From an uncultured Chloroflexia bacterium (GTDB lineage: Bacteria; Chloroflexota; Limnocylindria; Limnocylindrales; CSP1-4), in assembly GCA_963728605.1 (NCBI GenBank), contig CAVSKS010000009.1, forward strand, positions 599,317 through 663,316: a DNA stretch of 64,000 nucleotides, in the 5' to 3' direction. Position numbers and translations under genes: made by a program. Below the pieces are notes generated by a model, which saw nothing but the letters and a program-made list of their open reading frames with translations, did not search any database and was not told the DNA's origin. How positions within the stretch are numbered: the stretch's first letter is position 1; the number at the start of each line of letters is the position of its first letter. This document shows, one piece after another, positions 10,972 to 31,453 of this stretch.

Positions 10972-10999
10972 CTAGGATCGCGAGCGCCGCCCTGTTGAC

Positions 11000-12280: not shown

Positions 12281-12304
12281 GTCTTGTCCTCTTACCCGGG
12301 TCAG

Positions 12305-12622: not shown

Positions 12623-12798
12623 GGCAGGCGGTGCTCCCGGACTTCGCCGGTTGCCATCACCTCCAGCAGCCGCATCGACAACTGTTCCCGGATGTCGAGC
12701 GGGATGCGCAGCACGGACGGAACGGCGTCCGTGGGAACGGCGAGTGCGACTGCGGACGCATCCTCTGTGCGCGCGAGCCCCGTCGAGCTATCCAGAGA

Positions 12799-13845: not shown

Positions 13846-15637
13846 ACCTCGCTCTCCCTTCGGCAGCTCGGTTCTCGACGGGCGCGGGATGTTCTGTTCG
13901 GCTCAGGAAGAAGTCGCGCGTCGGGGCGTCCATGAAGTAGACGTAGCAGCCGCGGAGGCCGCGGGTTAGCAGGACCCGGTAGGTGCTCTTGACGTAGCGG
14001 GTGAACTCGGCCTCGGTGACGCCGCGGCGGACGACGCGGTCGTGGGACTGGTCGCGCTGGCCGACCCATCCCCCATCCATCGGCCGGTAGACGAGGTCGG
14101 GGCCGACGATCACGCCGACGTAGTCGAACTCGAAGCCCTGCGCGGTGTAGACGCAGCCGACCTGGTCGATCCCCTCCTTGGCGCTCGCCCAGAAGTCCGA
14201 CTTCGGGATGCCGGGGCCGAGCCGGCCGACGCCGTCCCTGGCGTTCCAGGGCATCGACCAGTCCCCCACCCTGACGTCGGGCTCGAGCTGGCCGGCGGCG
14301 TCGGGGTCGGACCAGGGCCAGCAGAAGCCGGCGACGAGTCGGGCGGTCGCCCCCTCCCCTGCCCGCTCGCGGATCAGGCGCTCGAGCTCGCGGACGTTGC
14401 CGACGATCCGGAAGTCGAACTCGTCGTCCATCGACCACAGGACCTGCGGCGTCCGGGCGAGCTCGAGGGTGTTGTCGACCCACTGGATGAACGAGTCGGA
14501 GCCGTTCGCCCGGAACTGCGCCTCGAGCTTGAAGTCGCGGACCTCGATCCCCCGCTTGGCGGCCGACTCGCGGATCAGGTCGGTGCTGCCGACCTCGCCC
14601 GGGCGGACGACCTGGAGGTCGTCGATGAAGAAGACCGACACGCGGCTGGCGTCGAGGATGTCGTCCATCTGGGACTTGCCGGTTCGGGCCTTGGCCGGCG
14701 TGAAGCGGCTGGTGCTGATCGTCCGGATCCGGTGGGCCTCGTCGAGGATCGCGACGTCGAGCGGCTCGGTGACGGTGGCGGTGTCGCGGAAGTACTTGAA
14801 CAGCGCGCCCGCCCGGCCGCCGACGAGCTTGCGCAGGTTCTCGGTGAACGCCTTCGAGCCGGTCAGGTGGAGGGTGCTGAGGCCGCGCTCGGCCAGCTCG
14901 GCGACGAGGTTGACGGCGATGACCGACTTGCCGGTGCCGGGCCCGCCCTCGACGAGGAAGACGACGTGGCGCTTGTTCTCGCCGGCGCCGCGGACCTCGT
15001 CGATGATCGCGTTGTAGGCGACGAGCTGCTCGTCGAGGAGGGTGAACGCGGGCTCGTTGCGGATGACCCGGGCGACGTGGTCGAGCAGCCGCTTGTGCGG
15101 CTTGAAGGCGGTCGTGGCGACGCGGTCGAGGATCTGGTTCGCCTCGTCGGGGCCGCTGACGCGCTGGTCGAGGAAGGTGGCGAAGGCGTCGCGCTGGTCG
15201 CCGGCGAAGCTCGGGTTTGTCGCCAGGAGCGTCGCGAAGTCGGCGTGGTAGAGCGGCGACTTCGGGTCGTACTGGGCGAAGTGGAGCCAGGCGCAGGCGG
15301 CGAGGTCGATCGGCGGCTCGTCGGTGAACGCCGGGTGGGTGTCCTGGAGGTAGCGCTGGTACTGGGCGACCTGGCGGCTCGGGTGGAGGTGGTCGCGCGG
15401 CCGGCCGCCGAAGTCGACGGTGACGCAGTCGGTGATGTTCGACCGGCCGACCTCGGTCCACTGCTTGAGCTCGACGACGACGGCGTGATCGCGGCGGGTG
15501 GCCGGGTTCGAGCCGGTGATCAGGACGTCGAGGCGCTTCGAGGTCAGCGGGAGTCGCAGCTCGACGAGGATCCCCTGGTCGGTCAGGTCAGCGAGCTGGA
15601 GGACGCTCGGCCATCGACGCTGAGCGAGTTGCGCCAC
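13817..15637 (-). CDS. DUF2075-family P-loop NTPase (Schlafen-like helicase-type) with an N-terminal nuclease-like domain
   Basis: 606 aa. Walker A VFLVEGGPGTGKSVIAVNL and Walker B VAILDEAHRI. C-terminal region characteristic of DUF2075. Confidence 0.85.
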   Translation of the reverse strand: MAQLAQRRWPSVLQLADLTDQGILVELRLPLTSKRLDVLITGSNPATRRDHAVVVELKQWTEVGRSNITDCVTVDFGGRPRDHLHPSRQVAQYQRYLQDTHPAFTDEPPIDLAACAWLHFAQYDPKSPLYHADFATLLATNPSFAGDQRDAFATFLDQRVSGPDEANQILDRVATTAFKPHKRLLDHVARVIRNEPAFTLLDEQLVAYNAIIDEVRGAGENKRHVVFLVEGGPGTGKSVIAVNLVAELAERGLSTLHLTGSKAFTENLRKLVGGRAGALFKYFRDTATVTEPLDVAILDEAHRIRTISTSRFTPAKARTGKSQMDDILDASRVSVFFIDDLQVVRPGEVGSTDLIRESAAKRGIEVRDFKLEAQFRANGSDSFIQWVDNTLELARTPQVLWSMDDEFDFRIVGNVRELERLIRERAGEGATARLVAGFCWPWSDPDAAGQLEPDVRVGDWSMPWNARDGVGRLGPGIPKSDFWASAKEGIDQVGCVYTAQGFEFDYVGVIVGPDLVYRPMDGGWVGQRDQSHDRVVRRGVTEAEFTRYVKSTYRVLLTRGLRGCYVYFMDAPTRDFFLSRTEHPAPVENRAAEGRARYGGEVRAGD

Positions 15638-15933
15638 GACTGGACCTCCGACGGCGCCGGCCGATAGCGGAACTCGTCGAAGAAGCGGTCTGACAGCTGG
15701 TTCGCGAGGCGTGCCTGCGTCGCGTCAGCGATGAACTGGCGCGTCGTGCCCTGGTAAAGGTGCACCGCTCCCCCACTCCCCCCGCCGGCGTCCCTCTCCG
15801 CGCCGGTCCTGCGGCCGACTATAGCGATCGCATCAGCGCGCAGCGTCTTTGAGCGCAGGCCCACCAAAAACGAGAAGTTCGCTGAAACCTACCGGGGCCC
15901 GACTTTGTCCTCCAGGTCCCGCCCTCTGACCCA

Positions 15934-16308
15934 TTAGGGCGACGGTGACGGCCGGAACCCGGATAACGCCTGATCGGCATACCACTGGGCGAACGGTTCC
16001 ACAATCCGGAAGAAGAGCCCTGATGAGAGCAGGAACCAGAAACCTCCGACGATCGCAAGAATGACGGTGGCTTGCAGCAGGAAGCCTTGGACTGGCGTCA
16101 GGTTCCGCCCCAGGCGTCGAGCGACCAGGATTTCTACGACGTCGGGCACCGTTCGGACGCGGCCACCGGCACTGAGACGGTACTTGGGAGTCGCATATGG
16201 ACGGGCGGCGGATGGCGAATACGCGAGCGGCCTGGTTCCGCGACAGGCTGGATACCGCTGACAGCCGAGGAATCGCTCGCCGGACGTCCGATTGCGGCGT
16301 TCGACCAT
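15934..16308 (-). CDS. small protein with a topoisomerase-type C4 zinc-ribbon motif and a C-terminal TM segment (start uncertain)
   Basis: FLGCQRYPACRGTRPL resembles the zf-C4 topoisomerase ribbon. TM helix LLQATVILAIVGGFWFLLSSGLFF. Confidence 0.35.
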   Translation of the reverse strand: MVERRNRTSGERFLGCQRYPACRGTRPLAYSPSAARPYATPKYRLSAGGRVRTVPDVVEILVARRLGRNLTPVQGFLLQATVILAIVGGFWFLLSSGLFFRIVEPFAQWYADQALSGFRPSPSP

Positions 16309-16368
16309 GGCCGCGCCACCCCGGTGTGTGGTCGGCGTCTCAGTCTGGCCTGACTGGGCCCATAGCCG

Positions 16369-16659
16369 TCAGACGTCCGACCGTGGTGCTCGCGATGATC
16401 GACCGTCCAGGATCGTGAGGACGACCACCTCGTCGGTGCCTTCGTCGTACCGATACACGACGAGCATCCAGCGCCACGGACCGAGGATGAAGCGGAGGCC
16501 CTCCCACCGGCCGGCCAGCGGTGGGCCGAGCAGCGGAAACTGGGCGAGGGGTTCGATGGATCGGCGGACGCGGTCCTGCGTGCCTCGGGGCAGGCTGTGG
16601 GTCCGGACCAACCTGGCGAGGTCGTCGACCGCTCTGTGGGCGACGACGACCCTCGTCAC
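16369..16659 (-). CDS. parE: ParE/RelE-family toxin
   Basis: GTG start. VVAHRAVDDLARL...PLAGRWEGLRFILGPWRWMLVVYRYDEGTDEVVVLTI. Lies 3 nt downstream of the antitoxin stop. Confidence 0.75.
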   Translation of the reverse strand: MTRVVVAHRAVDDLARLVRTHSLPRGTQDRVRRSIEPLAQFPLLGPPLAGRWEGLRFILGPWRWMLVVYRYDEGTDEVVVLTILDGRSSRAPRSDV

Positions 16660-16662
16660 GGG

Positions 16663-16920
16663 CTACAGGTCCGCGAGCGGGATGACTCGGCCGGCCTTCG
16701 CGTCGGCGATGCCTTCCTGGGCGCTTTCCCAGGCACCGTCCATGCGGTCCAGCAAGGCCACCACATCTCTCACGTCAGGATCCGTATCGTCGAGAGCGGT
16801 GGACAGGAGTGACCGAGCCAGCGTTCCCGGGTTGGTGTGGGTTCGCTCCGCGAGACGGCGCAGCTTGAGTGCTCGCTCGTCGTCGAGCACCACGTTGACG
16901 CGGTTCGGCTTGCCGACCAT
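16663..16920 (-). CDS. parD: ribbon-helix-helix antitoxin (ParD/CopG-like)
   Basis: Internal ATG at 16920. KPNRVNVVLDDERALKLRRLAERTHTNPGTLARSLLSTALDD. Confidence 0.65.
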   Translation of the reverse strand: MVGKPNRVNVVLDDERALKLRRLAERTHTNPGTLARSLLSTALDDTDPDVRDVVALLDRMDGAWESAQEGIADAKAGRVIPLADL

Positions 16921-16925
16921 GGGGC

Positions 16926-16960
16926 GAACCGTAGCACAGAACTGCACGGTTCGTGTACAC
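16926..16960 (-). promoter_or_regulatory. candidate operator for the RHH antitoxin: inverted repeat GAACCGT-N13-ACGGTTC followed by palindrome GTGTACAC
   Basis: Located 6-40 nt upstream of the parD start. Perfect 7-bp arms at 16926-16932 and 16946-16952. GTGTACAC at 16953-16960. Confidence 0.35.
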
Positions 16961-17354
16961 GCGTCGCCTGCCCGGCCAGACACGTTGCGGTCAACGGCGG
17001 GCAAATGGCGAAGCAGGCCCTCGAAGCCGGCCTGCTCGACGAGATCGGCGTGGATCTCGTGCCGGTGTGGTACTGGGTGCCGCGACCGACTCCTCGCCGA
17101 CTTCAGCACGCCGGTCCTCGAGGGCCCGATCCTGGTCGTCGAGGGAACTGGCGTCACCCACCTGCGCTACCGCGTCGTGAAGTAGTCGCTGTGCTCTACC
17201 GCGGGCCGCGGCGTCGTTCGAAGATGTGATCGAGGTCCTTGCGCCAGGTCTGGCCAGCGTCCTCGGAGGCGTCGGCGCGCATATCGATCCGGTCGGGCTG
17301 CACCCGCATGACGATGCGCTGGTGGAAGTCCGGATCCTCGCGACGCCGGTTCGG

Positions 17355-19625
17355 TCAGCCCCGGCGGCGGACGTCAGTTCGCATGAGCTGCACCTGGTAA
17401 GGCTTGCCCGTCGATAGCAGCCAGAAGAGCGAGGTCGTGCCTTCCGACGTGCGAACGAAGGAGTCGACCAGGAGCGGCGAATACAGCCAGCCATCGATCG
17501 GCACGTCGTCCGGCGCGTACCGAACGGGCTGCAGCCCACCGGCGGGATTGTTGAGGTAGCGGCCGTACGCCTCGCTCGGCCGCAGGATCTCGATTCGGTC
17601 GGACCACGGCCCCCAGGGCGTTGGCGAGCTCCGAAGGACGATGGGTCGCTCCCACCCAGGATCGGCGCCGAAGTCGCTTGCACCCGCACGCAGGTGATAC
17701 GGCCAGCCCTCGGTGTACAGCGCGATCCAGCGGTCCAGGTCCGGCACCCACGACACCGACAGGAACGAGACCGACGGCACGTCGAAGAGCGGTGTCGCCA
17801 GGGTTGGGTCCAGGGTCCATCGAGGTTGATCCGGTGTCGTGGGATCCGCGGCCTGGAAGTACCTGATCGGGAGTTGCTCGGCGCTCGCCATGCCGGCGGC
17901 GACCCGCCAGGGCAGTGGCAAAGGGATGTAACCGAGATGGGCCGCCCACGGCGCATGGGCCTGACCCCAGATCAGCAGGCCCTCACCGTCTCGTTCGGGC
18001 AGGCCGGGCCAATCGGCGTTCCTGACCACGCGCCCGCCGGCAAGATTCAATCGATCGTGTGCGACGACTCCGGGCAGGCGCGGAGCGACCCTGTCCTGCG
18101 GGTCGCGGTTGATGTAGGTGATGGCGTAGTGCAGGTCGAAATCAGCCGCCAGGTCATCCGCGCTCGCGAGGAGGATCTGGCTGTCCTCCGTCGCTTCTGG
18201 CGGGATCGCATGGAAGAAGGCCCACACCCGGCCGTCGTGGAAGAAGCCGCCGGTCGGCGTCTCCAAAGCCTTGAGGTGGTGCATGCCGTGGACCCTGAAG
18301 GGTCTGTATCCGCCTCCAGCGGCCGGCTCACGAAGGAAGTCGAGGGCGAACCCGTCGGGTTCCACTTGGCGCGCATACGAGATCCCGATCGGATCGAGGT
18401 CTCGGCTGCGCGGGCCGCCGAACTCATCCCCGAACAGGAAGATGAGCTGCTCGCCGTACACGACCGGGAACCCGAGGTCCGTACCGCCGACACCGGCCGT
18501 GGTCGAGTCGTTGATATGGGGCAGATCCTCCGGGTCGTAGTTGCCGGTGAGCTGGCAGATCCGCTGGGTCGCGCCATGAATGGGGACGGGGCCCTGCCAA
18601 TCCGTAGTGCCCACGACCCAGGCGACGTGGAGGACCCCGTTGCCACCCATTGCGACAGCCGTCACCTGGTCGTCCTGCGCGGCCATGGCGACGCCGCCCG
18701 ACGGTTCGAGGACGGTGGGCCCGATGGGCACAGGACCGTTCCACTCGCCACCCTCGTTGACCCAGGCCACATGCAGGTCGCCGTCGGACCCGACGGCGGT
18801 CGCCGCGAGGATGTCATCGCCCTGTTTGACAGCCCCGACGCCGGACCAAGGCTCGAGCACCGGACCGCCGATGGGGATCGGCCCGTGCCACTGTCCGGTG
18901 CCGTCGACCCAGGCGATGTGAAGCGTCCCGTCGCGCCCGATCGCCGCCGCGGTGAGCGTATCGCCCGTCTGGTACGAGAGGGCGATCCCGGACTTGGGCT
19001 CGAGGACCGGACCGCCAACCGGGACCGGTCCCTGCCACTGTTGCACCTCGTTCACCCAGGCGATGTGCAGGGTCCCGTCGCGTCCGATCGCCGCACAAAC
19101 GAAGATGTCGTCGCCTTGCTTCCCCAGCGCCAGGCGCGACCAGGGCTCGAGGACCGCCGGCCCGACCGGGACCGGGCCTTGCCACTCCCCCGCGCCGTCG
19201 ACCCAGGCCACATGGAGTTGCCCGTTACGCCCGACGGCGGTGGCCACGAAGGTGCCATCCGTCTGGTGACCCAGGGCGACTCCGGACCGAGGTTCCAGGA
19301 TCGCTGGCCCGACGGGCACGGGATCGTGCCATGTCCCGGTACCGGTGGCCCACGCAACCCGGAGTCGACCATCGGTCCCGATGGCGGCCGCGGTCAGGAC
19401 GTCATCCGTCTGCCTGGCCAGGGCGACACCGGACCAGGGTTCGAGTTCGCCAGGTCCGACCGGCACCGGACCCTGCCATGGCCGGCCCCGATTTGCCCAG
19501 GCGACATTGAGCCGGCCAGTCCGGTCGATCGCGACAGCCGTGAGGATGTCGTCGGTCTGCTGGGCAATGGCCACGCCACTTCGTGGAGCAAGGTCGCCGT
19601 GAGCGAGCACCTCGATGTCGATCAT
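17355..19625 (-). CDS. protein with eight ~45-aa tandem beta-propeller-like repeats and a C-terminal DUF4185-like (glycosyl-hydrolase-like) domain
   Basis: 756 aa. Repeats of the form PVPVGPxxLEPWSGVAxxxQxDDxLTAAAIGxDGxLHVAWVxGxGxWxG. C-terminal domain carries VVYGEQLIFLFGDEF...PWGPW. ATG overlaps the stop of the upstream M14 gene (ATGA). Confidence 0.8.
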   Translation of the reverse strand: MIDIEVLAHGDLAPRSGVAIAQQTDDILTAVAIDRTGRLNVAWANRGRPWQGPVPVGPGELEPWSGVALARQTDDVLTAAAIGTDGRLRVAWATGTGTWHDPVPVGPAILEPRSGVALGHQTDGTFVATAVGRNGQLHVAWVDGAGEWQGPVPVGPAVLEPWSRLALGKQGDDIFVCAAIGRDGTLHIAWVNEVQQWQGPVPVGGPVLEPKSGIALSYQTGDTLTAAAIGRDGTLHIAWVDGTGQWHGPIPIGGPVLEPWSGVGAVKQGDDILAATAVGSDGDLHVAWVNEGGEWNGPVPIGPTVLEPSGGVAMAAQDDQVTAVAMGGNGVLHVAWVVGTTDWQGPVPIHGATQRICQLTGNYDPEDLPHINDSTTAGVGGTDLGFPVVYGEQLIFLFGDEFGGPRSRDLDPIGISYARQVEPDGFALDFLREPAAGGGYRPFRVHGMHHLKALETPTGGFFHDGRVWAFFHAIPPEATEDSQILLASADDLAADFDLHYAITYINRDPQDRVAPRLPGVVAHDRLNLAGGRVVRNADWPGLPERDGEGLLIWGQAHAPWAAHLGYIPLPLPWRVAAGMASAEQLPIRYFQAADPTTPDQPRWTLDPTLATPLFDVPSVSFLSVSWVPDLDRWIALYTEGWPYHLRAGASDFGADPGWERPIVLRSSPTPWGPWSDRIEILRPSEAYGRYLNNPAGGLQPVRYAPDDVPIDGWLYSPLLVDSFVRTSEGTTSLFWLLSTGKPYQVQLMRTDVRRRG
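18515..19595 (-). repeat. eight in-frame tandem coding repeats of about 135 bp
   Basis: Correspond to the 45-aa protein repeats of the 17355-19625 gene. Diverged copies, not a CRISPR array. Confidence 0.7.
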
Positions 19626-21244
19626 GTCGACGTCCCCCGCTTCGCCGGCCTTCTCGTCCGCTTGGGCGATACCGCTGCCGGGGCCTCCCGCATCAGGGTC
19701 GCCACGACTCGGGAGACGGTTCGACCCTGGGCCGCCGTGAGCCGCTTCTGCACCTGCGCGAGGTCCCGCTTGACCTTCGGGTCCTCAATTCGGCGCGACA
19801 GGGCTCGGACAAATCTCCTCGCCCGGGCGGTGTCGGCGGCGGTGAGCTTGCTGGAGTTGCGCTCGATCAGCTCGGTCGCCCGTCCGAGGAGCTCAGCCGC
19901 CTCCCGCTGCAGCTTCTCGTCCTCGAGGACGATGGCGAGGACCGGTCGCTGGACGCGGTCGAACAGGTCGAGCCAGCCCTGGCCAGCGTCGGTGGTCGCG
20001 AGCGTCTCGTCGCGCAGGGCCCGGATCGCCTTGACGTCCCGAACGTTGTCGAACAGGGAAACGCCGACGAACTCGATCGCGCAGATGGTCTGCTCGATGA
20101 GGGTCAGGATCGCCGCCTTGGTGTCCTTCTTCGTGTCGGCGAGGCGGGTGGCATCCGATGGGTGGAAGTCCTGCCAGTCGTTGTCCGTGTCCTGCCCGCA
20201 CTCGAAGGCGAAGGCATAGGTCTTCTGGAGCCCCGGGTTCCGAAGGTGCTGGCTGTAGACGTAGTCGGAGCTCGTGCCTGAGGCGCCCGTCGGATAGATC
20301 GAGTGGATGGGCTGCGGCGTGTAGTTCCGTCCCCGGACCATCCGGACGGAGTTGACGACCCGCTGGGCGACGACCTGATAGCGCCGGAGATCCGCCGACG
20401 GGATGTACTCCTGGTACGTCGGCGGGTTCAACAGGGCGCAGCTTCCCGAAGCCAGGGTCGTGAAGTTCTGGCCCGGCGTCGTGGTCTGGAGCCGGGCGTG
20501 GCCCCACGGATACATGATCAGCTCTTTGAAGGAGTGCACGTCGACGAAGACGTTGACCTTGAACGTCTCGCAGAAGGTCCGGATGTTGCGAGCCTCGGGC
20601 TCGGAGAATGCGGCGGGGCCGCAGTAGGTCTGGTACGGATTGCAGACGTCGCACGACGTCGCCGAAGTGATCGTTGCCCAGGCGATGTCGAAGTTGCGGT
20701 TGACATCGACGCCGACGCACGGCGAGTTGAGGTTGTCGTGGCGGTTCATCCGCCACATGTCGTCCTCGTCCATCGCGTACTGCCGGCCATCGGGGTTGGC
20801 GGTCGGGATGAGCCAGATGTCGAGGGTCTCGACCATCAGCCTCACGTCCTGGGCGGACCACTTCCGGCCCTGGGTGCTGCTGGCGGAGCCCTTGTAGGTG
20901 ATGCCCTGGCCGAGCAGGTACGACCGCACGAGATCGCCGGCGAGCTCGATGATGGCGTCCGGGTTCATGTACTCCCGGGCATGCACGCCGCCGATCGCGA
21001 GGAAGCCGCGCCGACCGGAGCCACCGCCCGCCGCGATCTTCAGCGCGTAGACCGGGCGATCTCCTTCGGTTCGATGCGGCAACTCCCGTCGCGTGCACAG
21101 CCACGGGAACGACGACGCCAGGTGCAGCATGATGTTGTCGATCTGGTCGACCGTTCGGTACACCGTCGTCAGCCCTTCTTCGTCCGGCGAGGCGAGCCCT
21201 CGGGCCCCTCGCGGGGAAGGTCCCCAAAGGTTTCCTCGAGCCAC
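19622..21244 (-). CDS. M14-family zinc carboxypeptidase
   Basis: HAREY...NPDG, VDVNRNF and DVHSF motifs are the zinc and substrate-binding signatures of M14 peptidases. Confidence 0.85.
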   Translation of the reverse strand: MARGNLWGPSPRGARGLASPDEEGLTTVYRTVDQIDNIMLHLASSFPWLCTRRELPHRTEGDRPVYALKIAAGGGSGRRGFLAIGGVHAREYMNPDAIIELAGDLVRSYLLGQGITYKGSASSTQGRKWSAQDVRLMVETLDIWLIPTANPDGRQYAMDEDDMWRMNRHDNLNSPCVGVDVNRNFDIAWATITSATSCDVCNPYQTYCGPAAFSEPEARNIRTFCETFKVNVFVDVHSFKELIMYPWGHARLQTTTPGQNFTTLASGSCALLNPPTYQEYIPSADLRRYQVVAQRVVNSVRMVRGRNYTPQPIHSIYPTGASGTSSDYVYSQHLRNPGLQKTYAFAFECGQDTDNDWQDFHPSDATRLADTKKDTKAAILTLIEQTICAIEFVGVSLFDNVRDVKAIRALRDETLATTDAGQGWLDLFDRVQRPVLAIVLEDEKLQREAAELLGRATELIERNSSKLTAADTARARRFVRALSRRIEDPKVKRDLAQVQKRLTAAQGRTVSRVVATLMREAPAAVSPKRTRRPAKRGTST

Positions 21245-21528
21245 TGCTGCACGGACTGATCCGTGGCGATCAGCTCACGTGGGAACGGCTGGATCGGGTG
21301 GTGGCGACGGATGCGGACCTCGTAACCCCGATCGACGAGGTCAACAATTCCCTCGGCGGTGATCAGCACCCTCAGGCGGCCGTACCGGTCCGGCATCCGG
21401 TCCAGCGGCTCCGCGTCGAGCTCACGGATATCCTTGCGACCGCGTCCCGGGTGGATCGTCGCGTCGAAGCGACCGGAGCTCGGTGGCGGCTGGGCGACCT
21501 GCTTCGGGCGGCGTGAGCGCTCTGCCAT
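21169..21528 (-). CDS. hypothetical protein sharing its N-terminal about 35 aa with the duplicated gene family at 23745-24329
   Basis: SSGRFDATIHPGRGRKDI matches SPGRFVATIHPGRDQKDL. The downstream sequence is unrelated. Confidence 0.3.
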   Translation of the reverse strand: MAERSRRPKQVAQPPPSSGRFDATIHPGRGRKDIRELDAEPLDRMPDRYGRLRVLITAEGIVDLVDRGYEVRIRRHHPIQPFPRELIATDQSVQQWLEETFGDLPREGPEGSPRRTKKG

Positions 21529-21702
21529 GTCGAAACCCTATGCGCGGGCCGTCTCGACAGCGTCTCGCCTCCGAGGCTGGCAGACAACGATCCGATGACA
21601 CCCGCGATGCACGACCTCATCGCCTGGGCACGAACCAACTGGCCGTAGCGACCGATCGCCCGGACGCCGGCGTTGTCGTTCGGGTGGCTGAGGGCTGCCG
21701 GG

Positions 21703-22311
21703 CTACCCGCCTCGGAGCTCGAAGCCGACGGCGCCGGGCCTGGCGAGCAGGCCGTCGAGTGACAGATCGGCGAGGAGCGTCTGGCGAATGGTCTCGCCGA
21801 GGTCGTTGAAGGTGGCCGCCGGCGCCGAGACCGTGATTCGGTGCCGCTTCCCGAAGGGACGGACGCCGGCCATGGTGAGAGAGACCACGTCGGCTCCCGA
21901 GGGCGAGCGACGGACGATCCGTGCCAGCCCGCTCACCGGCGATCGCATCATGTCGTCGACCTCGCCGTCGGTCGTCCAGATGTAGCCCACTGGAATGACG
22001 GGCGCCCGTCCCCACGTCCTGGTCCATGCCAGGCCCGCCTCGAGGCGACGCTGGGACTGGCCGGGAAAGTCCGTCGCGGAGATCCAGACCCAGCGGTCCG
22101 CGAGGCGTCGGCCCCAGTAGTGGGTGACGGCGCCGGGGCGCTGTGCGACGTCGAACCGTTCGCCGCCGACCTCCACCCAACCGTCGAACGTTGTCTTCGC
22201 CGACGCTCCCTGATTTCGCGCCGCGGGTGAGCAATGCGTTCGAGATCGCAGCGAGAGCCTTCGCGGCGCGCTGCCCAGTCGCCGTGCTGGAACCGACATC
22301 GCCTCGTTCAT
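21703..22311 (-). CDS. hypothetical protein, duplicate copy 1 (N-terminus diverged or replaced)
   Basis: About 500 bp (21690-22190) is about 90% identical to 23740-24235. Body WVEVGGERFDVAQRPGAVTHYWGRRLADRWVWISATDF... Family unknown. Confidence 0.45.
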   Translation of the reverse strand: MNEAMSVPARRLGSAPRRLSLRSRTHCSPAARNQGASAKTTFDGWVEVGGERFDVAQRPGAVTHYWGRRLADRWVWISATDFPGQSQRRLEAGLAWTRTWGRAPVIPVGYIWTTDGEVDDMMRSPVSGLARIVRRSPSGADVVSLTMAGVRPFGKRHRITVSAPAATFNDLGETIRQTLLADLSLDGLLARPGAVGFELRGG

Positions 22312-22485
22312 CGGCGGGCAGCCTTAATCGGTCCCGGTCCCGCTCGGCCTTAACAACGCGGTGTCCTCAAGTGTGATGCGTTCGCGCGACGCTTGAATGT
22401 GGGGTGTCCCGGGCTGATGATGCGTGGTGGTTTTGGACGCTGCGTCGACGTGTAGGCGCGGCCCGGTTGCATTGGGAGGCTGGAC

Positions 22486-22650
22486 ATGACACTCACCGCC
22501 CGGTCGGTACTGCTTCTCGTCGCCGTGGTGCTCTTCGTAATCGCCGCGATCGGCATCGATCTGGGCAACATCTCCCCCACGGCCCTGGGACTCGCCTGCT
22601 TCGCGGCAGCGTTCCTAGTGCCGGACTCGGTCCTCAGCCGCCGCCCGTAG
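22486..22650 (+). CDS. small hypothetical membrane protein (54 aa)
   Basis: GGGAGG 6 nt before the ATG. MTLTARSVLLLVAVVLFVIAAIGIDLGNISPTALGLACFAAAFLV has two hydrophobic helices. Not in the ORF track because it is under 60 aa. Confidence 0.4.
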   Translation: MTLTARSVLLLVAVVLFVIAAIGIDLGNISPTALGLACFAAAFLVPDSVLSRRP

Positions 22651-22876
22651 CAAGGGCTTCGAGGAGCGGCGGTCGGATCCGCCTGAGCGGCACGACCAGA
22701 TCCACCTCGGCCAGATTCGGGAGGGGTGCGGGCTCGGGCGATACGAGCCGGACGTCGACGTTCGCCGGCAGATCGCCCATGTGGGTCCGCTCGGGCATGT
22801 CGGGCAGGCAGTCGACGACCGTGTCTGGACGCGCTAGATCGTGGCTTCGCGCGCCTGTCATGCCGTTGGACGGTGC

Positions 22877-23485
22877 TCAGTCGCCTAGCAGGGCGGGCCT
22901 TGGGCCGCTGAAGCGGTCGTATCGCTCGAGATACCCCATTCTGCGACCGACGGGGGCGAGCAAGGCCGACAGCGGCCCAACGATCCAGCTGAGCGGCGGT
23001 GGCGGGGCCGCTTCGCGCCGGTACGCCCGGGCAAGCACCATCATCTGCAGCGGGTTCGGGACGCCACGCTTGTTGACCTTGCCCTCCGCGGCCAAGCCGA
23101 ACATGGTCTCGAACAGTGTCTCCATGTCGAGTGCCGGGCGGAGTTGGATGAGCGTCGCCGCTTCGGCGTCACCGGGATTCCACCAGTTGTGCGGCACACC
23201 GGCGGGCACGACGGCGACCTCGCCGGGCCGGTAGAGGCGTTTGGTTCGGCCGACCTGGATCATCACGGGTGCCCCGCCGACTTCAAAGCGCTCCTCGGCG
23301 TTCGGGTGCACATGCGGCGTTGCGATGAAGCCGCCGGGCGCCATCCGGAGCATGAATTCCAGCATCTCGCCGTCGGTGTCGGCGGCCCGCTTGCGGAAGA
23401 CGAGGCGCTCGCCGGTCACGGGGTGGACGAGCGGATTCTCTTCCGTTCCGATCCGGAAGTCCTCGGTCGGCGCTGCTGAGGTCAT
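22877..23485 (-). CDS. cupin-domain protein
   Basis: Internal ATG at 23485. ATPHVHPNAEERFEVGGAPVMIQVG...GEVAVVPAGVPHNWWNPGD is the cupin motif pair. Confidence 0.75.
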   Translation of the reverse strand: MTSAAPTEDFRIGTEENPLVHPVTGERLVFRKRAADTDGEMLEFMLRMAPGGFIATPHVHPNAEERFEVGGAPVMIQVGRTKRLYRPGEVAVVPAGVPHNWWNPGDAEAATLIQLRPALDMETLFETMFGLAAEGKVNKRGVPNPLQMMVLARAYRREAAPPPPLSWIVGPLSALLAPVGRRMGYLERYDRFSGPRPALLGD

Positions 23486-23744
23486 CGCGTGCCTCGTGTG
23501 TCGTGACGGCCTGACGACGATACGCCATCGACGCCTCGGACGGCGGCGGGACGCTGCGAGCACGCCAGCATCGTCGTTCGGCTGGTCTCGCCGAGTTAGC
23601 CGCGCGATGGCTCGGTCACCGCGATGTCTCGACCGTCGTGTGCTGCGTCGACGAGGCGGACGCGCGCCGAACCGCCCGATACGAGAGCAAGACGAGCGGC
23701 ACCTGACCCAGCGGCGCCTGGATGTCCGGGTCGAGTTGCGCGGG

Positions 23745-24329
23745 CTACCGGCCTCGGAGCTCGAAGCCGACGGAGCCGGGCCTGGCGTGCAGGCCGTCGA
23801 ATAGGAGATCGGCCAGGAGCGTTTGGCGAATGCTTTCGCCGAGGTCGTTGAAGGTGGCTACCGGCGCTGAGACCGTGATTCGGTGGGGCTTCCCGAAGGG
23901 ACGCACGCTGGCCATAATCAGGGACACGGTGTCGGCGCCCGAGGGCGACCGGCTGACGATCCGTGCCAGGCCGCTCACCGGTGATCGCATCATGTCGTCG
24001 CCCTCGCCGTCGGTCGTCCAGATGTAGCCGACCGGAATGGCGGGCCCTCGTCCCCACGTCCTGGTCCATGCCGGGCCCGCCTCGAGGCGGCGCTGGGGCT
24101 CGTCAGGAAAGTCCGTCGCGGAGATCCAGACCCAGCGGTCCGCGAGGCGCCGACCCCAGTAGTGGGTGACCGCGCCGGGGCGCTGTGCGACCTCGAACCG
24201 CTCGCCGTCGACCTCCACCCATAGGCCGCTGAGGTCCTTCTGGTCGCGTCCGGGATGGATCGTCGCGACGAAACGTCCCGGAGAGATCGGCACCGCCGGG
24301 CTGTCGCGCTTGCTTCGTTTGAGCGCCAT
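23745..24329 (-). CDS. hypothetical protein, duplicate copy 2 (intact)
   Basis: 194 aa. MALKRSKRDSPAVPISPGRFVATIHPGRDQKDLSGLWVEVDGERFEVAQRPGAVTHYW... Confidence 0.55.
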   Translation of the reverse strand: MALKRSKRDSPAVPISPGRFVATIHPGRDQKDLSGLWVEVDGERFEVAQRPGAVTHYWGRRLADRWVWISATDFPDEPQRRLEAGPAWTRTWGRGPAIPVGYIWTTDGEGDDMMRSPVSGLARIVSRSPSGADTVSLIMASVRPFGKPHRITVSAPVATFNDLGESIRQTLLADLLFDGLHARPGSVGFELRGR

Positions 24330-24394
24330 ATGGCGAACCTATCACGGCCCTGTCGCTGGATCGTCTCGCCGCACGGAGCTGCCGACGCTCGACC

Positions 24395-24500
24395 TTGCGC
24401 AGCCAAGCCGGTCCGTCGGCCGTCTGCCCGGCCCGCCGCATCCGCTCGACCTCGTGGCGAAGGCACTTGCTCGGCCAGCCGTCCCCACGGATCGCCTTGA
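24395..24500 (-). pseudogene. 3'-terminal fragment of an S4-domain (Hsp15-like) gene
   Basis: Translates to ...AIKAIRGDGWPSKCLRHEVERMRRAGQ, compared with GIKAVRGEGRPSKRLRRELERMRRAGQA at the end of the intact gene at 33160-33531. DNA similarity about 80%. Confidence 0.45.
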
Positions 24501-24523
24501 TGGCGGGGGCGATCGCCCGCTGA

Positions 24524-25273
24524 TCAGCCCTTCTGCTCCGGCTCGTCCACGAACCAGCCGCGGACGATCTCTTCCCAGCCCTCTTCGGGAAGGCCCATCT
24601 CGGACCGCTCGGCCACGGACATGTTCGCCAGCAGCGCGACGGACTTGCGGGCCTGGAACGCGCGACTTGCCGGGGTCCGCCCTCGTGCTTCGATTCGCTT
24701 CCAACGCTCCTTGGCCGATGGCTTGTTCCGGTCGGCGGCCGTCTTGCGGACGACCCACCGACCGAGCCATGCCTGGAGCGACGGCGATCGCTCTGAGAAC
24801 GACGCGCGAAAGCGTTCGGCGCTGGCCCACTCGGTCAGATCCTCCGGGTCCCAGTCGATTACGGCGCCGGTCGCGGTATCGACGCAGGTCCAGCCCGGGT
24901 CGAGCTGGACGAGCGGCAGCAGCGTCCCCGGCCACCGCCGTCGCCGCGGAAGCTCTTCGCCTGCCCGACGAAAGCGCGTCTCCTTCAGCAGGCCCGCCAG
25001 CGATAGCAGGCCCGAGCCGGGACCGAAGCCGCCATCGGCGACCTCCGTGTAGAGACGCACGAGGAACGGTGGGAACGTCACCTCGAGTGCCTTCTCGATC
25101 GAGCGAAGGTCGGCCAGGGCGGCCGGTCGGGGCAGTTCCCGGCGACCGCCAAACAAGCCGCGGAGCGAGAATCCGCGCGGCGCGAGTTCGGTCCTGCGAT
25201 CGGGATCTGCCGCCCGAGTCCGGAGCTGCTCGAGGAGAGCGTCAGCGTCGAGTTCCGAGCCGTCACCGGTCAC
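24524..25273 (-). CDS. SMI1/KNR4 (SUKH-1) family protein, immunity-protein-like
   Basis: LEVTFPPFLVRLYTEVADGGFG...LLSLAGL is the SMI1/KNR4 pattern. Confidence 0.65.
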   Translation of the reverse strand: MTGDGSELDADALLEQLRTRAADPDRRTELAPRGFSLRGLFGGRRELPRPAALADLRSIEKALEVTFPPFLVRLYTEVADGGFGPGSGLLSLAGLLKETRFRRAGEELPRRRRWPGTLLPLVQLDPGWTCVDTATGAVIDWDPEDLTEWASAERFRASFSERSPSLQAWLGRWVVRKTAADRNKPSAKERWKRIEARGRTPASRAFQARKSVALLANMSVAERSEMGLPEEGWEEIVRGWFVDEPEQKG

Positions 25274-25318
25274 GGTTGGTTCGCTCCTTCAAGCTGAAGA
25301 GGTCGGCGGCCGACGGCA

Positions 25319-26983
25319 TCACGCGCCCCGCGGCACCTCGCCAAGATGGGCGCTGACGACGAGTTCGGCCGCCGCGCGGCTGTCGCGGTGGCCGGTCACG
25401 GCGGCGAGGAAGACCTCGCGCGGGAGGGCCAGCAGCTCGACCCCCGTGACGGCGATCACCGTGGCGGTCCTGGGGACGTCGCGGATGAGGGCGATCTCCC
25501 CGAACTGGGTGCCGGCGCCCTGGCGGCGGACGACGGCCCCGTCGATCGACACCTCGACCTCCCCATCGGCCACGATGAAGAGGCGGTCGCCGGCGTCGCC
25601 CTGCTGGATGACGGTCGCGCCCGGCGCGAAGCGCATCGGCTCGAGGTTGAGCGCAAGGCGTTCGAGGACGGCCGGCGTGAGCGGCGTAAACATCGGGATC
25701 CCGCGAAGCAGCGCCAGCTCCCGGACGGGGACCACGGCGGCCGCGTCGAGCCGGCGGAGCGTCCGCCAGGACGGGACCAGCGCCAGCGGCAACAGCAGGC
25801 CGGCGACGACGAAGGCCCCCTGCGTGCCGACGAGCGCGATCAGCACCGCCGCCAGCGCGCCGCCGAGGCCGAACGCGCCCATGTACATCGCTTCCAGGAC
25901 GCCCAGCACCCGCGACAGGACAGCATTCGGGGTGGCGCGCTGGAGCAGCGTCAGGCTGATGACGTCCTGCACGGCCCGCCCCGCGCCGGCGATGACCAGG
26001 AGGACCACCGCAACCGCGCCGATCGGCAGCAGGCCGATGCCGGCGAGCGGCAGACCCCAACAGACCAGGGCAATCACGAACGGGCCCGCCAGGCGGAGGC
26101 GGCCGGCGAGCGACAGGGCCACTGCGGAGCCGACGAGCCCGCCCACTCCGGCCACCGCGTTCAGGTAGCCGGCGCCACTCGGCCCGAGGTCGGTGAGCTC
26201 CAGCGCGAAGACGACGAGGAGCACGTCGAGCAGCCCCCACACGAGTGACGCGGCGCCGATGAGGAGCACAATCAGGCGCGGGCCGGACAGCGAGGCGACG
26301 GCGCCCGCGCCCGCGGCGAGCTCGCGGAGCACGGCCCGGGCACCGGACGCCGGACGCCCTGCACCTGTCGCGCCCGGGATGTCGATCGTTGCCACGCCCA
26401 GCGCGGACAGCCCGGCGATCGCCGCCGCGACGAGCAGTGCGGCCCCGCCGCCCCACCCCGCCACCACGAGGCCGGCAACCACCTGCCCGAGGAGGATTCC
26501 GACGTTCTCCATCGTCGCCGACGCCGCGTTCGCGGCGGTCAGCTCGGCCGGCGTCCGGGCGATCGACGGAAGCAACGAGAAGTGCGCCGGGCGCGTGATC
26601 GTCACGACGCACGCGCCGAGGATGGCGAAGCCGTAGACGAGCACCGCGGGTCCGGCGGCGAGGACCGCCAGGGCGGTCGTAACCATGAGCCCCGCCTGCA
26701 GCCCGTAGGACAGGAGCAACACCCGATCGCGGCGGAACCGGTCGCCCAGCGACGCTGCGAGAGGCGCCGCCACTGTGGCCGGTAGCAGCTGGAGCACCGA
26801 CACCGCGCCCGCCTCGACCGCGCCGCCGCGCTCGAAGGCGTAGAGAAGGATCGCGAGCCAGCGCGCCCAGTCGGCGAAGTTGAAGCCGGCGAATGCGAGG
26901 ACGACACGCCGCAGGCGGCGGTTGCCCATGACGAGTCTGAGCGTCGCAAGCCGTCGCATCCCGCGCGAAGCATCCCACGCCAC
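25319..26983 (-). CDS. MFS transporter fused to a C-terminal cyclic-nucleotide-binding domain
   Basis: About 12 TM helices, then FAPGATVIQQGDAGDRLFIVADGEVEV...GTQFGEIALIRDVPRTATVIA (cNMP-binding fold). Confidence 0.8.
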   Translation of the reverse strand: MAWDASRGMRRLATLRLVMGNRRLRRVVLAFAGFNFADWARWLAILLYAFERGGAVEAGAVSVLQLLPATVAAPLAASLGDRFRRDRVLLLSYGLQAGLMVTTALAVLAAGPAVLVYGFAILGACVVTITRPAHFSLLPSIARTPAELTAANAASATMENVGILLGQVVAGLVVAGWGGGAALLVAAAIAGLSALGVATIDIPGATGAGRPASGARAVLRELAAGAGAVASLSGPRLIVLLIGAASLVWGLLDVLLVVFALELTDLGPSGAGYLNAVAGVGGLVGSAVALSLAGRLRLAGPFVIALVCWGLPLAGIGLLPIGAVAVVLLVIAGAGRAVQDVISLTLLQRATPNAVLSRVLGVLEAMYMGAFGLGGALAAVLIALVGTQGAFVVAGLLLPLALVPSWRTLRRLDAAAVVPVRELALLRGIPMFTPLTPAVLERLALNLEPMRFAPGATVIQQGDAGDRLFIVADGEVEVSIDGAVVRRQGAGTQFGEIALIRDVPRTATVIAVTGVELLALPREVFLAAVTGHRDSRAAAELVVSAHLGEVPRGA

Positions 26984-27171
26984 GCGGCGCGCTCGCGGTC
27001 GTTCCGGCAGCGTTCCCGATAGGCGACGCCTGCGGCCGCCGTCCCGGTTCCCGTCCGAACGGTCGTCGCCTCTGAACTATTTTGAACGTTCCGGGTGCGC
27101 CGGCGGATCGATGTCCCAGAGCGCCGCTCATTCGCTACCTGGCGAGGCGGACGGCAGGAAGGGAGATTGAC

Positions 27172-27708
27172 GTGGATCGAGGATCGAAGCGGCTCGCAGG
27201 TTGGGCCGCGAGCGTGCTCGTCAGCCTGTTGGCATCTGGGCTCGTCCCGGGCACCGTCATGGCTGGGGGGCCAGACCATCAAGGACCGTTCGTCAACGAG
27301 TACTCGTTCATCGGCTTCGGGTGCGGATCCTTCGACGTCCTGATCGAGGGCGCCGGCACCGACGAGTTCACCATCTGGACCGATGCCTCCGGCGAGGTCG
27401 AACGCGTCCTGTATCGCGCTCGCTACCCGCATGACACGCTCACGAACACTGTGACCGGGCGCTCGATCGTCGTCCGCGCGGCGTTCGAGGAGCGCATCGT
27501 CCGGATCCCGGGCACGGACGAGTACACCAAGACGATTACCGGTTTTCGCTATCTCGTGAACGAGCCCGGCGCCGGGGTCACCATCCGTGACGTCGGCCGG
27601 ATCGTGTACGGCGATCTCGACCAGTCGATCGTGCTGTGGCAGGCGGGCGAGCACAACCTGGCGCTCGACGATCAGTTCGAGGCGTTGTTCTGTGCCGCAC
27701 TGGCGTGA
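27172..27708 (+). CDS. secreted hypothetical protein
   Basis: GTG at 27172 with AAGGGAG upstream. Signal peptide LAGWAASVLVSLLASGLVPGTVMAGG. Confidence 0.55.
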   Translation: MDRGSKRLAGWAASVLVSLLASGLVPGTVMAGGPDHQGPFVNEYSFIGFGCGSFDVLIEGAGTDEFTIWTDASGEVERVLYRARYPHDTLTNTVTGRSIVVRAAFEERIVRIPGTDEYTKTITGFRYLVNEPGAGVTIRDVGRIVYGDLDQSIVLWQAGEHNLALDDQFEALFCAALA

Positions 27709-27724
27709 CGTCGATACTCGCGTC

Positions 27725-28492
27725 GTGAAGAGCCTGCTCGCGGGACTGGCAACTGTCCTGCTCGCCGCCTGCCAGGGTGGAGGGGGTGCGGCATCGCCGC
27801 TCCCCTCCCCGGTGACGGCTGCCTCGGCACCAGCGGCGACCGCCGTCACCACGAGCCCGGCCACGAGCGAAGGCCCACCGACGGTGCGCCGCATGGATGG
27901 CGCGTACCTGTACGGCGGCGATGACGTCGTCCACCCAGCGGGGCTGTATGCGGCGCCGAGCTTCGCCTACCCGTTCACGGCCGAGCTGAATACGCCCCTC
28001 GGGATACGCGAGTCGGGCCAGTCGGAGCTCTTCGTCTTCATCGGTCAGGACAAGAACGCGCCGGCGAACGGTGACGAGGAGTTCGACGCCATGTTCCTGC
28101 GACAGGTCATCGATCCCACCGATCAGCGCTCGCTCAGCACGTTCGACGGAGATCCGTTCGAGTGGTTCATCGACCACACTCGCCTATCGCTGGTGACGGG
28201 CTCGCGGACCGAGCTCGAGGTCGACGAGCTGACCGCTCATCAGGCGGAATTTCTGCCCGCGAGTACGGTTTCCTGCGGGAACTTCCACCCGAATCTCCAA
28301 TGCGTCCTCATCGGCTTCGGGCCGGACGGCGACGAGCCGTTTGCACTGTTCGGCGGCAGCCGCCTGCGGATCGTAGTCGTCGAGCACGAGGATCGTGACC
28401 TGGTCTTTGCATATCAGGCCGCCGACACCGACGCCTTCGCCGCGAAGGTCGCGGTCTTCGATCACTGGATCCGGACGGTCGACTTTTTGTGA
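27725..28492 (+). CDS. lipoprotein, hypothetical
   Basis: Lipobox LLAACQGG, then a Thr/Ala/Pro-rich linker and a globular domain. Confidence 0.6.
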   Translation: MKSLLAGLATVLLAACQGGGGAASPLPSPVTAASAPAATAVTTSPATSEGPPTVRRMDGAYLYGGDDVVHPAGLYAAPSFAYPFTAELNTPLGIRESGQSELFVFIGQDKNAPANGDEEFDAMFLRQVIDPTDQRSLSTFDGDPFEWFIDHTRLSLVTGSRTELEVDELTAHQAEFLPASTVSCGNFHPNLQCVLIGFGPDGDEPFALFGGSRLRIVVVEHEDRDLVFAYQAADTDAFAAKVAVFDHWIRTVDFL

Positions 28493-28563
28493 TCGTCGTC
28501 GGGCTGCGGATGCCGACGCTGATCGCCTGGCTCGTGGGAGGCGATGCCCTCGTCTCCGGACGA

Positions 28564-30779: not shown

Positions 30780-30976
30780 CCATAATGCTGTCGATACGCC
30801 ACGACGGCGCGATGTGCGCCTTGCGGTCGAAGAGCGGCAGGTAGCACATGACCGCGTTCAATCCGTCGTCGGTCTCGGTGCGAAGGGCAAGCGGCTGGCG
30901 GAGCGGATGCGCCAAGTGGCCAACGTAGGGACGCACGGTCCTCTGAGTCGGTAGGGCGCCTCGGCATTCCTTCCCG

Positions 30977-31400: not shown

Positions 31401-31420
31401 AGCGATCGATCCGGGTGTTA
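31368..31420. repeat. about 50-bp repeat (5' end of S4/Hsp15-like gene), second copy at 33476-33531
   Basis: gggtcttgaccagccggaccgcgcagagccagcgatc is nearly identical in both places. Confidence 0.6.
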
Positions 31421-31453
31421 TCGGCCATGGGCAATTCTGCGACCATGCACCGC

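Follow-up and report, generated by a model that had tools for sequence, protein, structure and literature searches.

Scars of Gene Turnover around an S4-Domain Gene: A Probable Hotspot of Illegitimate Recombination in a Soil Chloroflexota Genome

Introduction

Integration of prophage e14 or phage 21 into icd duplicates the 3' end of icd. A comparable layout, with a diverged direct copy of the 3' end some distance behind the intact gene, is found for the S4-domain gene described here, which lies in a 64-kb stretch of DNA from an uncultured soil Chloroflexota genome (contig CAVSKS010000009.1, 68.5% G+C). This stretch is called the window hereafter, and all positions are given in its coordinates. 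Unlike the icd case, however, the window offers neither an integrase nor a common core, and the ancestral chromosomal flank is found on the relic and not on the intact S4 gene. Two other described situations lend themselves to comparison: hotspots that are devoid of mobile-element genes and whose content turns over as the core genes at their flanks recombine (Oliveira et al., 2017, PMC5635113), and homology-facilitated illegitimate recombination (de Vries and Wackernagel, 2002, as summarized in PMC6382021). We propose that the window probably holds a gene-turnover hotspot around S4, and that its repeats are scars left by old duplications, insertions and deletions, with illegitimate recombination providing the joints.

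Similar to the hotspots of PMC5635113, the locus intersperses conserved elements (DUF1697, S4, the pair formed by open reading frame [ORF] C and an M14 peptidase gene, SUKH, and a Kelch/ECF-sigma block) with variable blocks, and it contains no recognizable integrase or transposase; its cargo is rich in toxin-antitoxin (TA) and defense-type genes. Unlike in those hotspots, the flanking S4 gene has itself been duplicated and eroded time and again, and the junctions are of the illegitimate type, in contrast to clean double crossovers within core genes. The likeness is one of content differences among five genomes. As in the illegitimate recombination outlined in PMC6382021, the joints connect unrelated sequences with little or no microhomology, and partial gene copies are located near an intact homolog, beside extra DNA. 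They differ from what is outlined there in that the S4 pieces are better explained by the erosion of an old paralog than by the fresh duplication of an anchor, and in that a donor is not demonstrable. The phenomenon is of a known kind, and the case is an ordinary but unusually legible example of redundant-gene erosion and accessory turnover near a conserved gene in an uncultured soil Chloroflexota.

Diverged Repeats Are Joined to Unrelated DNA

Repeats were mapped by self-BLASTN of the whole window and with a repeat finder. An earlier note on this DNA, made from its letters alone, had called for such a self-comparison, and every repeat that it listed was recovered. The repeat of roughly 500 bp and 90% identity reported there corresponds to 21699-22179 and 23741-24221 (481 nt, gapless, 89.6% identity, E = 0); the note was off by a few bases, and the aligned copies do not drop below the 70% identity at which it would have given up the duplication. 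Two further repeats involve the ends of the S4 gene: 24421-24519 matches 33163-33261 at its 3' end (99 nt, 85.9%, E = 3e-26), and 31371-31429 matches 33474-33532 at its 5' end (59 nt, 88.1%, E = 9e-14). Finally, the heads of ORF C and of a chimeric ORF, B, share 44 nt at 80% (21431-21474 versus 24235-24278), corresponding to 26 amino acids at 61.5% in the proteins. All genes involved in these repeats are located on the minus strand. At least eight novel joints between unrelated sequences are found inside 12 kb and the arrangements differ in relatives, which supports the proposal that recombination, illegitimate or homologous, has acted repeatedly in the region. The observation made in the earlier note is confirmed, and its overall interpretation is partly supported.

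Could the arrangement be an assembly artifact that arose because a metagenomic contig was joined chimerically or its repeats were resolved wrongly? The source does appear to be a single metagenomic contig of 752,040 nt, with no second assembly on record. However, the copies are 10-14% diverged and each abuts non-homologous DNA, unlike the product of a collapsed or duplicated assembly. Moreover, the substitutions are coding-like in B and decay-like in the S4 relic, and joints of non-homologous sequence with at most a few bases of microhomology are not created by assemblers. An independent genome (represented by L110, see below) harbors relics at the corresponding positions, and two other relatives (L004 and L111) carry the same kind of S4 scars. 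An artifact is thus extremely improbable.

Two Old S4 Paralogs May Have Been Lost Reciprocally

The intact S4 gene (S4-1, the beta paralog; 33160-33531, minus strand) was correctly located by the earlier note and encodes a clear S4 domain (Pfam, 49.7 bits at a cut-off of 22.8). It reaches 43.2 bits against the NCBIfam Hsp15 equivalog, the cut-off of which is 148, and is hence best described as S4-domain, Hsp15-like. We compared its neighborhood in five genomes, namely the window and 20-kb loci from four relatives (L004, L083, L110 and L111; L- and P-numbers denote related loci and proteins in the comparison set). S4-1 is 87-88% identical at the nucleotide level to the S4 genes of the four relatives. 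The value for L110 is 87.6%, whereas the flanking orthologs of the window and L110 are 92-95% identical, as would be expected if the S4 genes were paralogs. In addition, the downstream flank of S4-1 is unrelated to the flank of the relatives' S4.

The missing flank is found elsewhere in the window. The S4 3' relic (24405-24519, minus strand) is composed of codons 91-123 (24421-24519) and about 16 nt of native downstream flank, and it begins 4 nt past the stop codon of the SUKH gene. A 15-nt downstream flank, GGCCGACGGACCGGC, is common to this relic and the intact S4 of L110; the stop codon of the relic has been removed by a 5-nt deletion. The relic carries 7-8 unique nonsynonymous changes at residues that are invariant in all intact copies, including R105W, R109C and R112H of the CpG type. 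The earlier note had recognized this piece, and the repeat is real; its origin appears to be different, because the piece looks like the eroded copy of a second, older S4 paralog that relatives keep intact, and not like debris of the local intact gene. A resemblance of the whole 92-nt spacer between the S4 relic and B to the spacer of L083 and L004 was also considered and was not supported by BLAST; about 15 nt (the L110 flank) are solid, and about 30 nt more that are shared with L083 are suggestive.

The S4 5' relic (31371-31428, minus strand) comprises the ATG and 19 codons, and runs out of frame into a PIN gene. It matches S4-1 at 51 of 58 nt, the last 37 nt being identical, and the S4 genes of relatives at 46-49 of 58. 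With 33 and 19 codons, the two fragments of the window are too short to form an S4 domain.

Are these fragments the footprints of mobile elements? Site-specific integrative islands might use S4 as an attachment site, in which case the S4 pieces would be attL/attR remnants that bound inserted blocks. Consistently, a TA-rich block is flanked by the intact S4 gene and the 99-nt 3' fragment, which have the same orientation and are separated by 8742 nt, and S4 fragments recur in four of the five genomes. Each of these fragments, however, derives from a different part of S4 (codons 1-19 and 91-123 in the window, 6-42 in L004, about 54-68 in L110 and about 86-123 in L111), which argues against a site-specific attachment site. 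In L111, the 3' relic is located 830 nt upstream of the intact S4, whereas relics lie downstream of it in the other genomes. There is no common core, and the 3' relic bears the chromosomal flank of the relatives' intact S4 together with differences of the decay type. Pfam detected no integrase, recombinase or transposase domain in the ORFs scanned from 19.6 to 36.9 kb, small or unscanned ORFs not being fully excludable. Neither a tRNA nor a known RNA family was found in the window or at the junctions, and a foreign-DNA signal is missing from the composition, with G+C content and skews flat across the block. Islands of this kind are therefore very unlikely.

We rather favor erosion of paralogs within a hotspot. 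In L110, a 47-nt S4 relic (19622-19667) occupies the position where the window has the intact S4-1. Taken together, these findings lead us to infer two old S4 paralogs that were lost reciprocally in different lineages. As in other cases of reciprocal (differential) loss of duplicated genes, the window would have kept one S4 intact along with a relic of the other, and L110 the opposite. The case is less complete than such precedents in that the L110 relic, at 47 nt, is too short to prove which paralog it represents, its assignment being by position. If correct, the reciprocal relics would show, without the involvement of mobile-element genes, how deletions trim dead DNA to the borders of working genes.

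L004 presents a related observation. Compared to L083, its spacer between S4 and C contains a 170-nt insertion (L004 9470-9650) with a headless S4 fragment, which spans codons 6-42 and is closest to the S4 gene of L004 itself (100 of 111 nt), an independent scar in another lineage.

Accessory Genes Differ between Conserved Flanks

L004 and L083 originate from metagenome-assembled genomes labeled "uncultured Chloroflexia", and their M14 proteins are 81-83% identical to that of the window. In both, S4 is located directly upstream of the C-M14 pair: L083 has S4 at 9068-9436 and C at 9717-10076, and L004 is the same apart from its 170-nt insert. The interval between S4 and C-M14 extends over 11.6 kb in the window (21568-33159), compared with about 280 nt for L083 and about 450 nt for L004. 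None of the genes that the window holds in this interval is found within 10 kb to either side of S4/M14 in L004 or L083. The opposite strand of the short spacers (L083 9437-9716, L004 9266-9716) encodes a conserved hydrophobic peptide (...PQVLSGFLSALLLPVAIFLITRALAS...), maybe from a small membrane-protein gene, which has no counterpart in the window.

L110, from the genome that also supplied L001, is arranged in the order ABC transporter, DUF1697, three genes, S4, a convergent PIN-RHH pair, several genes, luciferase-like, VCPO, Kelch, ECF sigma and SUKH. Its positions 15336-19605 match the window at 38575-34286 (92.4%), and 19687-20372 match 25289-24605, which includes the SUKH gene (94.8%). 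The SUKH/SMI1-KNR4 gene (24524-25273, minus strand; Pfam SMI1_KNR4, 26.4 bits) thus represents a conserved anchor. What lies between these matches in the window is a 9-kb block (25290-34285) that corresponds to 82 nt in L110, and these 82 nt hold the 47-nt S4 relic. The block contains genes for APH, S4-1, vapB, a PIN protein and an SRPBCC protein, the S4 5' relic with a dead PIN gene, a 553-aa ORF, an ECF sigma factor, two unknown ORFs and an MFS-cNMP transporter. For this block, the S4 relic that L110 retains at the same position points to a deletion in L110, an exception among events that are mostly not polarizable.

The APH gene itself is over-called as a 620-aa ORF (33528-35390, minus strand). 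Only residues ~413-573 match the phosphotransferase family, and the N-terminal ~366 codons overlap an ECF-sigma/Kelch pair on the opposite strand (34110-36876, plus strand) that is 92% conserved in L110. The real APH gene probably covers about 33528-34240.

Across the five genomes, the DUF1697-S4, S4-C and ECFsigma-SUKH intervals all differ, such that the same conserved flanks enclose different accessory genes, as is characteristic of a hotspot. The five genomes have five different gene sets around S4, most of them TA-rich.

A PIN Toxin Gene without a Head

Within the block, the S4 5' relic borders on a beheaded vapC-type PIN toxin gene (30977-31366, minus strand), which covers positions 3-118 of the 120 in the PIN profile (E = 2.2e-15). 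The relic reaches as far as codon 2 or 3 of this gene, and there is no in-frame ATG, GTG or TTG before 31180. The claim of the earlier note that the start of a vapC gene was replaced by a piece of S4 thus holds. The PIN domain is present, without a start codon and without an antitoxin gene, and a VapBC module is hence not formed. Loss of an antitoxin is tolerable only if the toxin dies as well, and a single deletion that removed both the antitoxin and the start of the PIN gene would be the natural explanation.

A separate pair in the block consists of an RHH-like gene (32848-33093) and a PIN gene (32058-32879). The latter overlaps the preceding RHH-like antitoxin gene, and its product has a C-terminal extension of ~140 aa without a family match. 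We also considered a duplicated S4-vapBC unit as the source of both PIN genes and rejected it, since the two PIN proteins of the window (30977-31366 and 32058-32879) are unrelated.

TA modules are packed around S4 in L110 as well. In L111, a dense TA array surrounds S4 (7300-16200), comprising MazE, DUF2442/DUF4160, PIN, HicB-like, TacA with an acetyltransferase, Gp49/HTH and Phd/YefM. Within this array, stretches of 55-84 nt are repeated with 84-92% identity (12469-12709 versus 15626-15751).

Copies A and B Are Each the 3' Half of a Two-Barrel Gene

The earlier note took the 481-nt repeat for the duplication of most of a 194-aa hypothetical gene. Neither copy, however, is complete: full-length members of the family have 280-310 aa, and in a database search with B, both A and B align to their last ~157 residues only. 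With the full-length protein P0002 as the query, tblastn found residues 138-297 in A and 142-298 in B, and did not find the N-terminal half of the gene in any frame of the window. Copy A (21699-22193, minus strand) is accordingly the 5'-truncated 3' half (residues ~138-299) of an AttH/tocopherol-cyclase-like gene and has no genuine N-terminus; mechanically, its ORF extends over 21703-22311, and the version of the gene caller has 157 aa (21703-22176). The cyclase-like part of copy B (23745-24222, minus strand) comprises residues ~142-299 of the same gene family.

The limits of the homology are sharp. Every full-length relative begins to match copy A at 22191-22193, and homology to the full-length gene of L001 (87% identical) starts at 22193 for A (codon ~138) and at 24222/3 for B (codon ~142). 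On the other side, homology of A and B to relatives stops a few bases past the stop codon; the match of A to L106 continues for ~14 nt beyond, to 21686. The B segment is thus nested within that of A at both ends, A having 13-14 more bases on the 5' side and ~14 more after the stop.

What do the two halves encode? A structural model of the full-length protein (AF2; pLDDT 93.7, pTM 0.90) has a two-β-barrel fold, and Foldseek aligns it with AttH (2ICH, E = 2.6e-11) and with 7A0Q (E = 2.9e-9); the fold is also that of kievitone hydratase and of the Fsa2/Phm7/CghA cyclases. Full-length relatives of A and B therefore share the fold of the AttH/tocopherol-cyclase-like proteins, in one chain of ~290-330 residues, which neither A nor B provides. 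Their sequences differ from these proteins in scoring below the threshold of Tocopherol_cycl (PF14249, 26.6 bits), with 25.1 bits for A, 23.8 for B and 23.6 for full-length P0002, and with matches restricted to profile positions ~155-221 of 335, in the middle of the model. A sequence-profile search of the PDB with the family gave no match. Given the starts of homology near codons 138 and 142 and the two-barrel model, A and B are each predicted to encode essentially the second barrel only.

Full-length relatives adjoin Septum_form or methyltransferase genes and never a cupin or a C-type gene, and hence neither A nor B is in the usual context of the family: a cupin gene (22877-23563, minus strand; Pfam Cupin_2, E = 3.3e-12; likely true start near 23485) is located between B and A. 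The closest relatives of A and B are each other (89.5%); next comes L001, with 86.8% identity to either copy, followed at greater distance by L106 and L107. A and B thus constitute an old pair that arose within the lineage (dS about 0.26). The frame of 158 codons is open in both copies, without indels, and overall dN/dS is 0.25-0.27.

A metagenome scan with an alignment of the family returned, among the matches listed, distant relatives only (at most 57% identity). A diversity-generating retroelement, also considered as a source of the differences between A and B, was rejected: the mismatches are mostly G/C and transitions, adenine is the rarest base at the mismatched positions of A (4 of 50), and no reverse transcriptase was seen among the ORFs scanned.

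ORF C Belongs to a Family Linked to M14 Peptidases

ORF C (21169-21528, minus strand) was thought in the earlier note to be a fusion that retained only the shared N-terminus. It is instead an intact, conserved small gene that encodes 119 aa, and the fusion is B. C is the first gene of a C-M14 operon, the second being the gene for the M14 peptidase (19622-21172/21244, minus strand). Of the 80 M14 loci recovered, which span Actinomycetota, Acidobacteriota, Nitrospirota, Proteobacteria and Chloroflexota, essentially all have a C-type ORF immediately 5' of M14. Family members have about 115-124 aa and are directly upstream of M14, and the most conserved element of their alignment is the invariant N-terminal motif RFDATIHPG; ORF C conforms in all of these respects. 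The 118-aa full-length homolog P0047 is likewise encoded immediately 5' of an M14 peptidase gene. The orthologs of ORF C in L004 and L083 are 79-82% identical in protein, and nucleotide homology to them begins 39 nt 5' of the gene. In the family, the C-terminal tail is rich in Lys/Arg, and the C gene often overlaps the M14 zinc-carboxypeptidase gene.

From this conserved linkage, it seems likely that C is functionally connected to the M14 peptidase, be it as a partner, a substrate or a regulator. In annotation, ORF C should count as a real gene and a conserved companion of M14 peptidases. The family is matched by no model in Pfam or NCBIfam. The notion that C might be a detached M14 pro-domain is unsupported, with no Pfam match and no fold match in the PDB (best E = 0.56) for an AF2 model of moderate quality (pLDDT 75.5).

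Downstream of M14, a 756-aa ORF (17355-19625) combines an N-terminal array of ~49-aa repeats (self-matches at 147-nt offsets, 65-69% identity) with a DUF4185-like region at its C-terminus. L004 and L083 lack this ORF at the corresponding position, and it has no relationship to the 720-aa protein encoded after M14 in L002.

B Is Probably an In-Frame Chimera with a Second C-Type Gene

The complete ORF B (23745-24329, 194 aa) starts within a head (24223-24370, minus strand) in which the 41-nt leader and initial 36 codons of another C-type gene, here called C2, are joined in frame to the cyclase-like part. The head is 82-84% identical in nucleotide sequence to the start and upstream region of the P0047-type gene of L002 and L003, whereas identity to ORF C amounts to only about 70%. 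This argues that B is a chimera whose head appears to stem from the divergent C2 and not from ORF C. The head retains the family motif as RFVATIHPG; the rest of the C protein is gone and there is no adjacent M14 gene, so that B does not qualify as a member of the C family. The window contains neither the remainder of C2 nor a partner M14 gene for it. At the joint of C2 and the cyclase-like part, the two share homology of no more than a base or two. An original joint via a shared GATGGG, reframed by a 7-nt deletion, would be compatible with the junction data; this is speculation and nothing here depends on it.

To what extent are A and B maintained? We polarized the 50 differences between them with four outgroups. 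The B lineage has acquired 6 nonsynonymous and 16 synonymous changes (pN/pS 0.13, p = 6e-6 versus neutrality), and the A lineage 12 nonsynonymous and 8 synonymous ones (pN/pS 0.55, p = 0.21), which is indistinguishable from neutral; the difference between the two lineages is borderline (Fisher p = 0.06). In the head of B, the differences from L002 are spread evenly across codon positions (ω about 0.62). G+C content at third codon positions (GC3) is coding-like in the head (0.78) and the core (0.86) of B, compared with 0.82-0.90 in real genes. Codons 1-44 of the long A ORF give 0.66 with a flat profile across positions, and hence do not represent a real N-terminus. By these measures B looks constrained, and A looks relaxed, though unbroken so far.

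One might argue that A and B both function as single-barrel paralogs and reflect the deliberate expansion of a C-terminal barrel that stands alone. Each has 158 open codons without an indel and a low overall dN/dS, as given above, and their truncation points almost coincide, near where the second barrel begins. In solved AttH-like and Fsa2/Phm7-type proteins, however, both barrels act together. A also lacks a start codon with a coding-like leader, having an internal GTG only, and evolves in a near-neutral manner. Other short homologs in databases look like sporadic truncations rather than a family. Two functional single-barrel genes are thus improbable.

For B taken by itself, a role is easier to envision. 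Conceivably, it is a young, functional chimeric gene in which a peptidase-partner leader, start codon and RFVATIHPG first β-strand motif became connected to an AttH-like second barrel and were kept by selection; we regard this as a tentative proposal that is more doubtful than the hotspot itself. B may then be expressed as a single-barrel protein. As a candidate, it resembles chimeric genes born from the 5' end of one gene and a fragment of another in that a leader, a start and 36 codons are followed in frame by 158 codons of coding-like composition, the larger part of the ORF showing purifying selection. It differs from them in that the recruited fragment begins within a β-strand of the parental fold. 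B is the sole element of the window with some novelty, since both parental gene types have been identified and its larger part shows purifying selection. If B were functional, domain capture would have given rise to a bacterial gene that can be dated and whose parental gene types are both known, and if expressed, it would constitute a natural experiment on the survival of one barrel from a two-barrel enzyme fold.

How Might the Window Have Been Shaped?

We envision a scenario whereby duplication or acquisition made some genes redundant, and illegitimate recombination and deletion then removed the dispensable parts until selected sequence was reached. An ancestor would have possessed two S4 paralogs, each of which rendered the other dispensable, and different lineages would have eroded different copies. 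Dead copies would have been trimmed by deletions to the edges of adjacent functional genes. Several joints do fall where working genes end: the S4 3' relic meets the SUKH stop codon, the S4 5' relic meets codon 2-3 of the PIN gene, and homology of A and B to relatives ends just past their stop codons. The PIN toxin gene might have lost its antitoxin and its start codon in one event, and a similar break might have cut C2 at codon 36. Of the two-barrel gene, two copies of the 3' half would have survived, the full-length form being present elsewhere in relatives. As the cyclase-like segment of B is nested in that of A, a truncated fragment resembling A was probably the source from which B was copied. 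It would have landed in frame behind the C2 leader and 36 codons, and would have experienced purifying selection since, whereas copy A, the S4 pieces and the PIN piece would be decaying. A pair of an intact gene and a relic of the same kind is formed by an SLFN-type helicase gene and a 212-nt relic (12399-12610 versus 14089-14299, 89.6%).

Is such a succession of events required? Alternatively, one large segmental or tandem duplication, roughly 10% divergence ago, might have been followed by loss of most redundant genes. The four repeat pairs have similar identities (86-90%), and A and B are sister copies. Yet the similarity of identities partly reflects the detection limit for short decaying fragments, and the order S4, S4, S4, C2, cyclase-like (twice), C, M14, helicase, helicase relic places related elements side by side as local neighbors and not in two parallel blocks. 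The window contains no second M14. The head of B, as detailed above, is closer to another lineage than to ORF C, such that C2 would not be a duplicate of C of that age. Furthermore, the events appear to differ in time: the S4 duplication predates the split from L110, which has relics or copies at both positions, and the cyclase-like pair postdates the split from L001. A single duplication is accordingly unlikely, and we give preference to a series of separate events at a hotspot.

Several findings weigh against this preferred scenario or parts of it. The break points of both A and B are located inside a long β-strand (model residues 129-145) instead of a linker, which argues against a cleanly excised domain. 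For a pseudogene that died long ago, it is somewhat surprising that copy A is free of indels and stops over 158 codons, and the low pN/pS of B could date from the stage of a full-length gene, in which case it would be uninformative on the chimera. The truncation points of A and B, only 13 nt apart, are consistent with descent from one truncated copy; they could also fit two independent truncations that were selected at a domain boundary. With five genomes, the order and direction of most events are not polarizable, and for most accessory genes an insertion here and a deletion in the relatives are equally possible. Exact-sequence look-ups of B, S4-1 and C revealed no second assembly of the organism to confirm the arrangement. 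Gene conversion from a full-length paralog, on the other hand, is unlikely, because a search with B found no full-length close paralog from this genome in the protein database. For annotation, a practical corollary is that the ORFs of 194 aa, 157/202 aa and 102 aa and the headless PIN gene should not count as ordinary genes.

Other Elements in the Window

The helicase gene mentioned above (13817-15637) encodes a 606-aa Schlafen-group-3/DUF2075 protein (Pfam E = 7.6e-88), and a 348-aa ORF separates it from the relic of a second copy at 12399-12610. L002 harbors a 53-nt relic of the same helicase family (2154-2206, 92%) downstream of its M14.

Between convergent genes, 54744-54918 constitutes a non-coding element of ~175 nt, two copies of which are present in a related genome (L001 7975-8127 and 19406-19577, the latter being L110 5843-6014) at 77-81% identity. 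One of its strands can form a long imperfect hairpin (-85.7 kcal/mol, z = -3.6), and none of 200 shuffled sequences was as stable. No Rfam family matches the element, which may represent a small repeat or else a structured RNA. Elsewhere, 1055-1203 and 3405-3552 form a direct repeat of 149 nt at 73%, and a near-perfect palindrome of 32 nt is located at 38542-38573.

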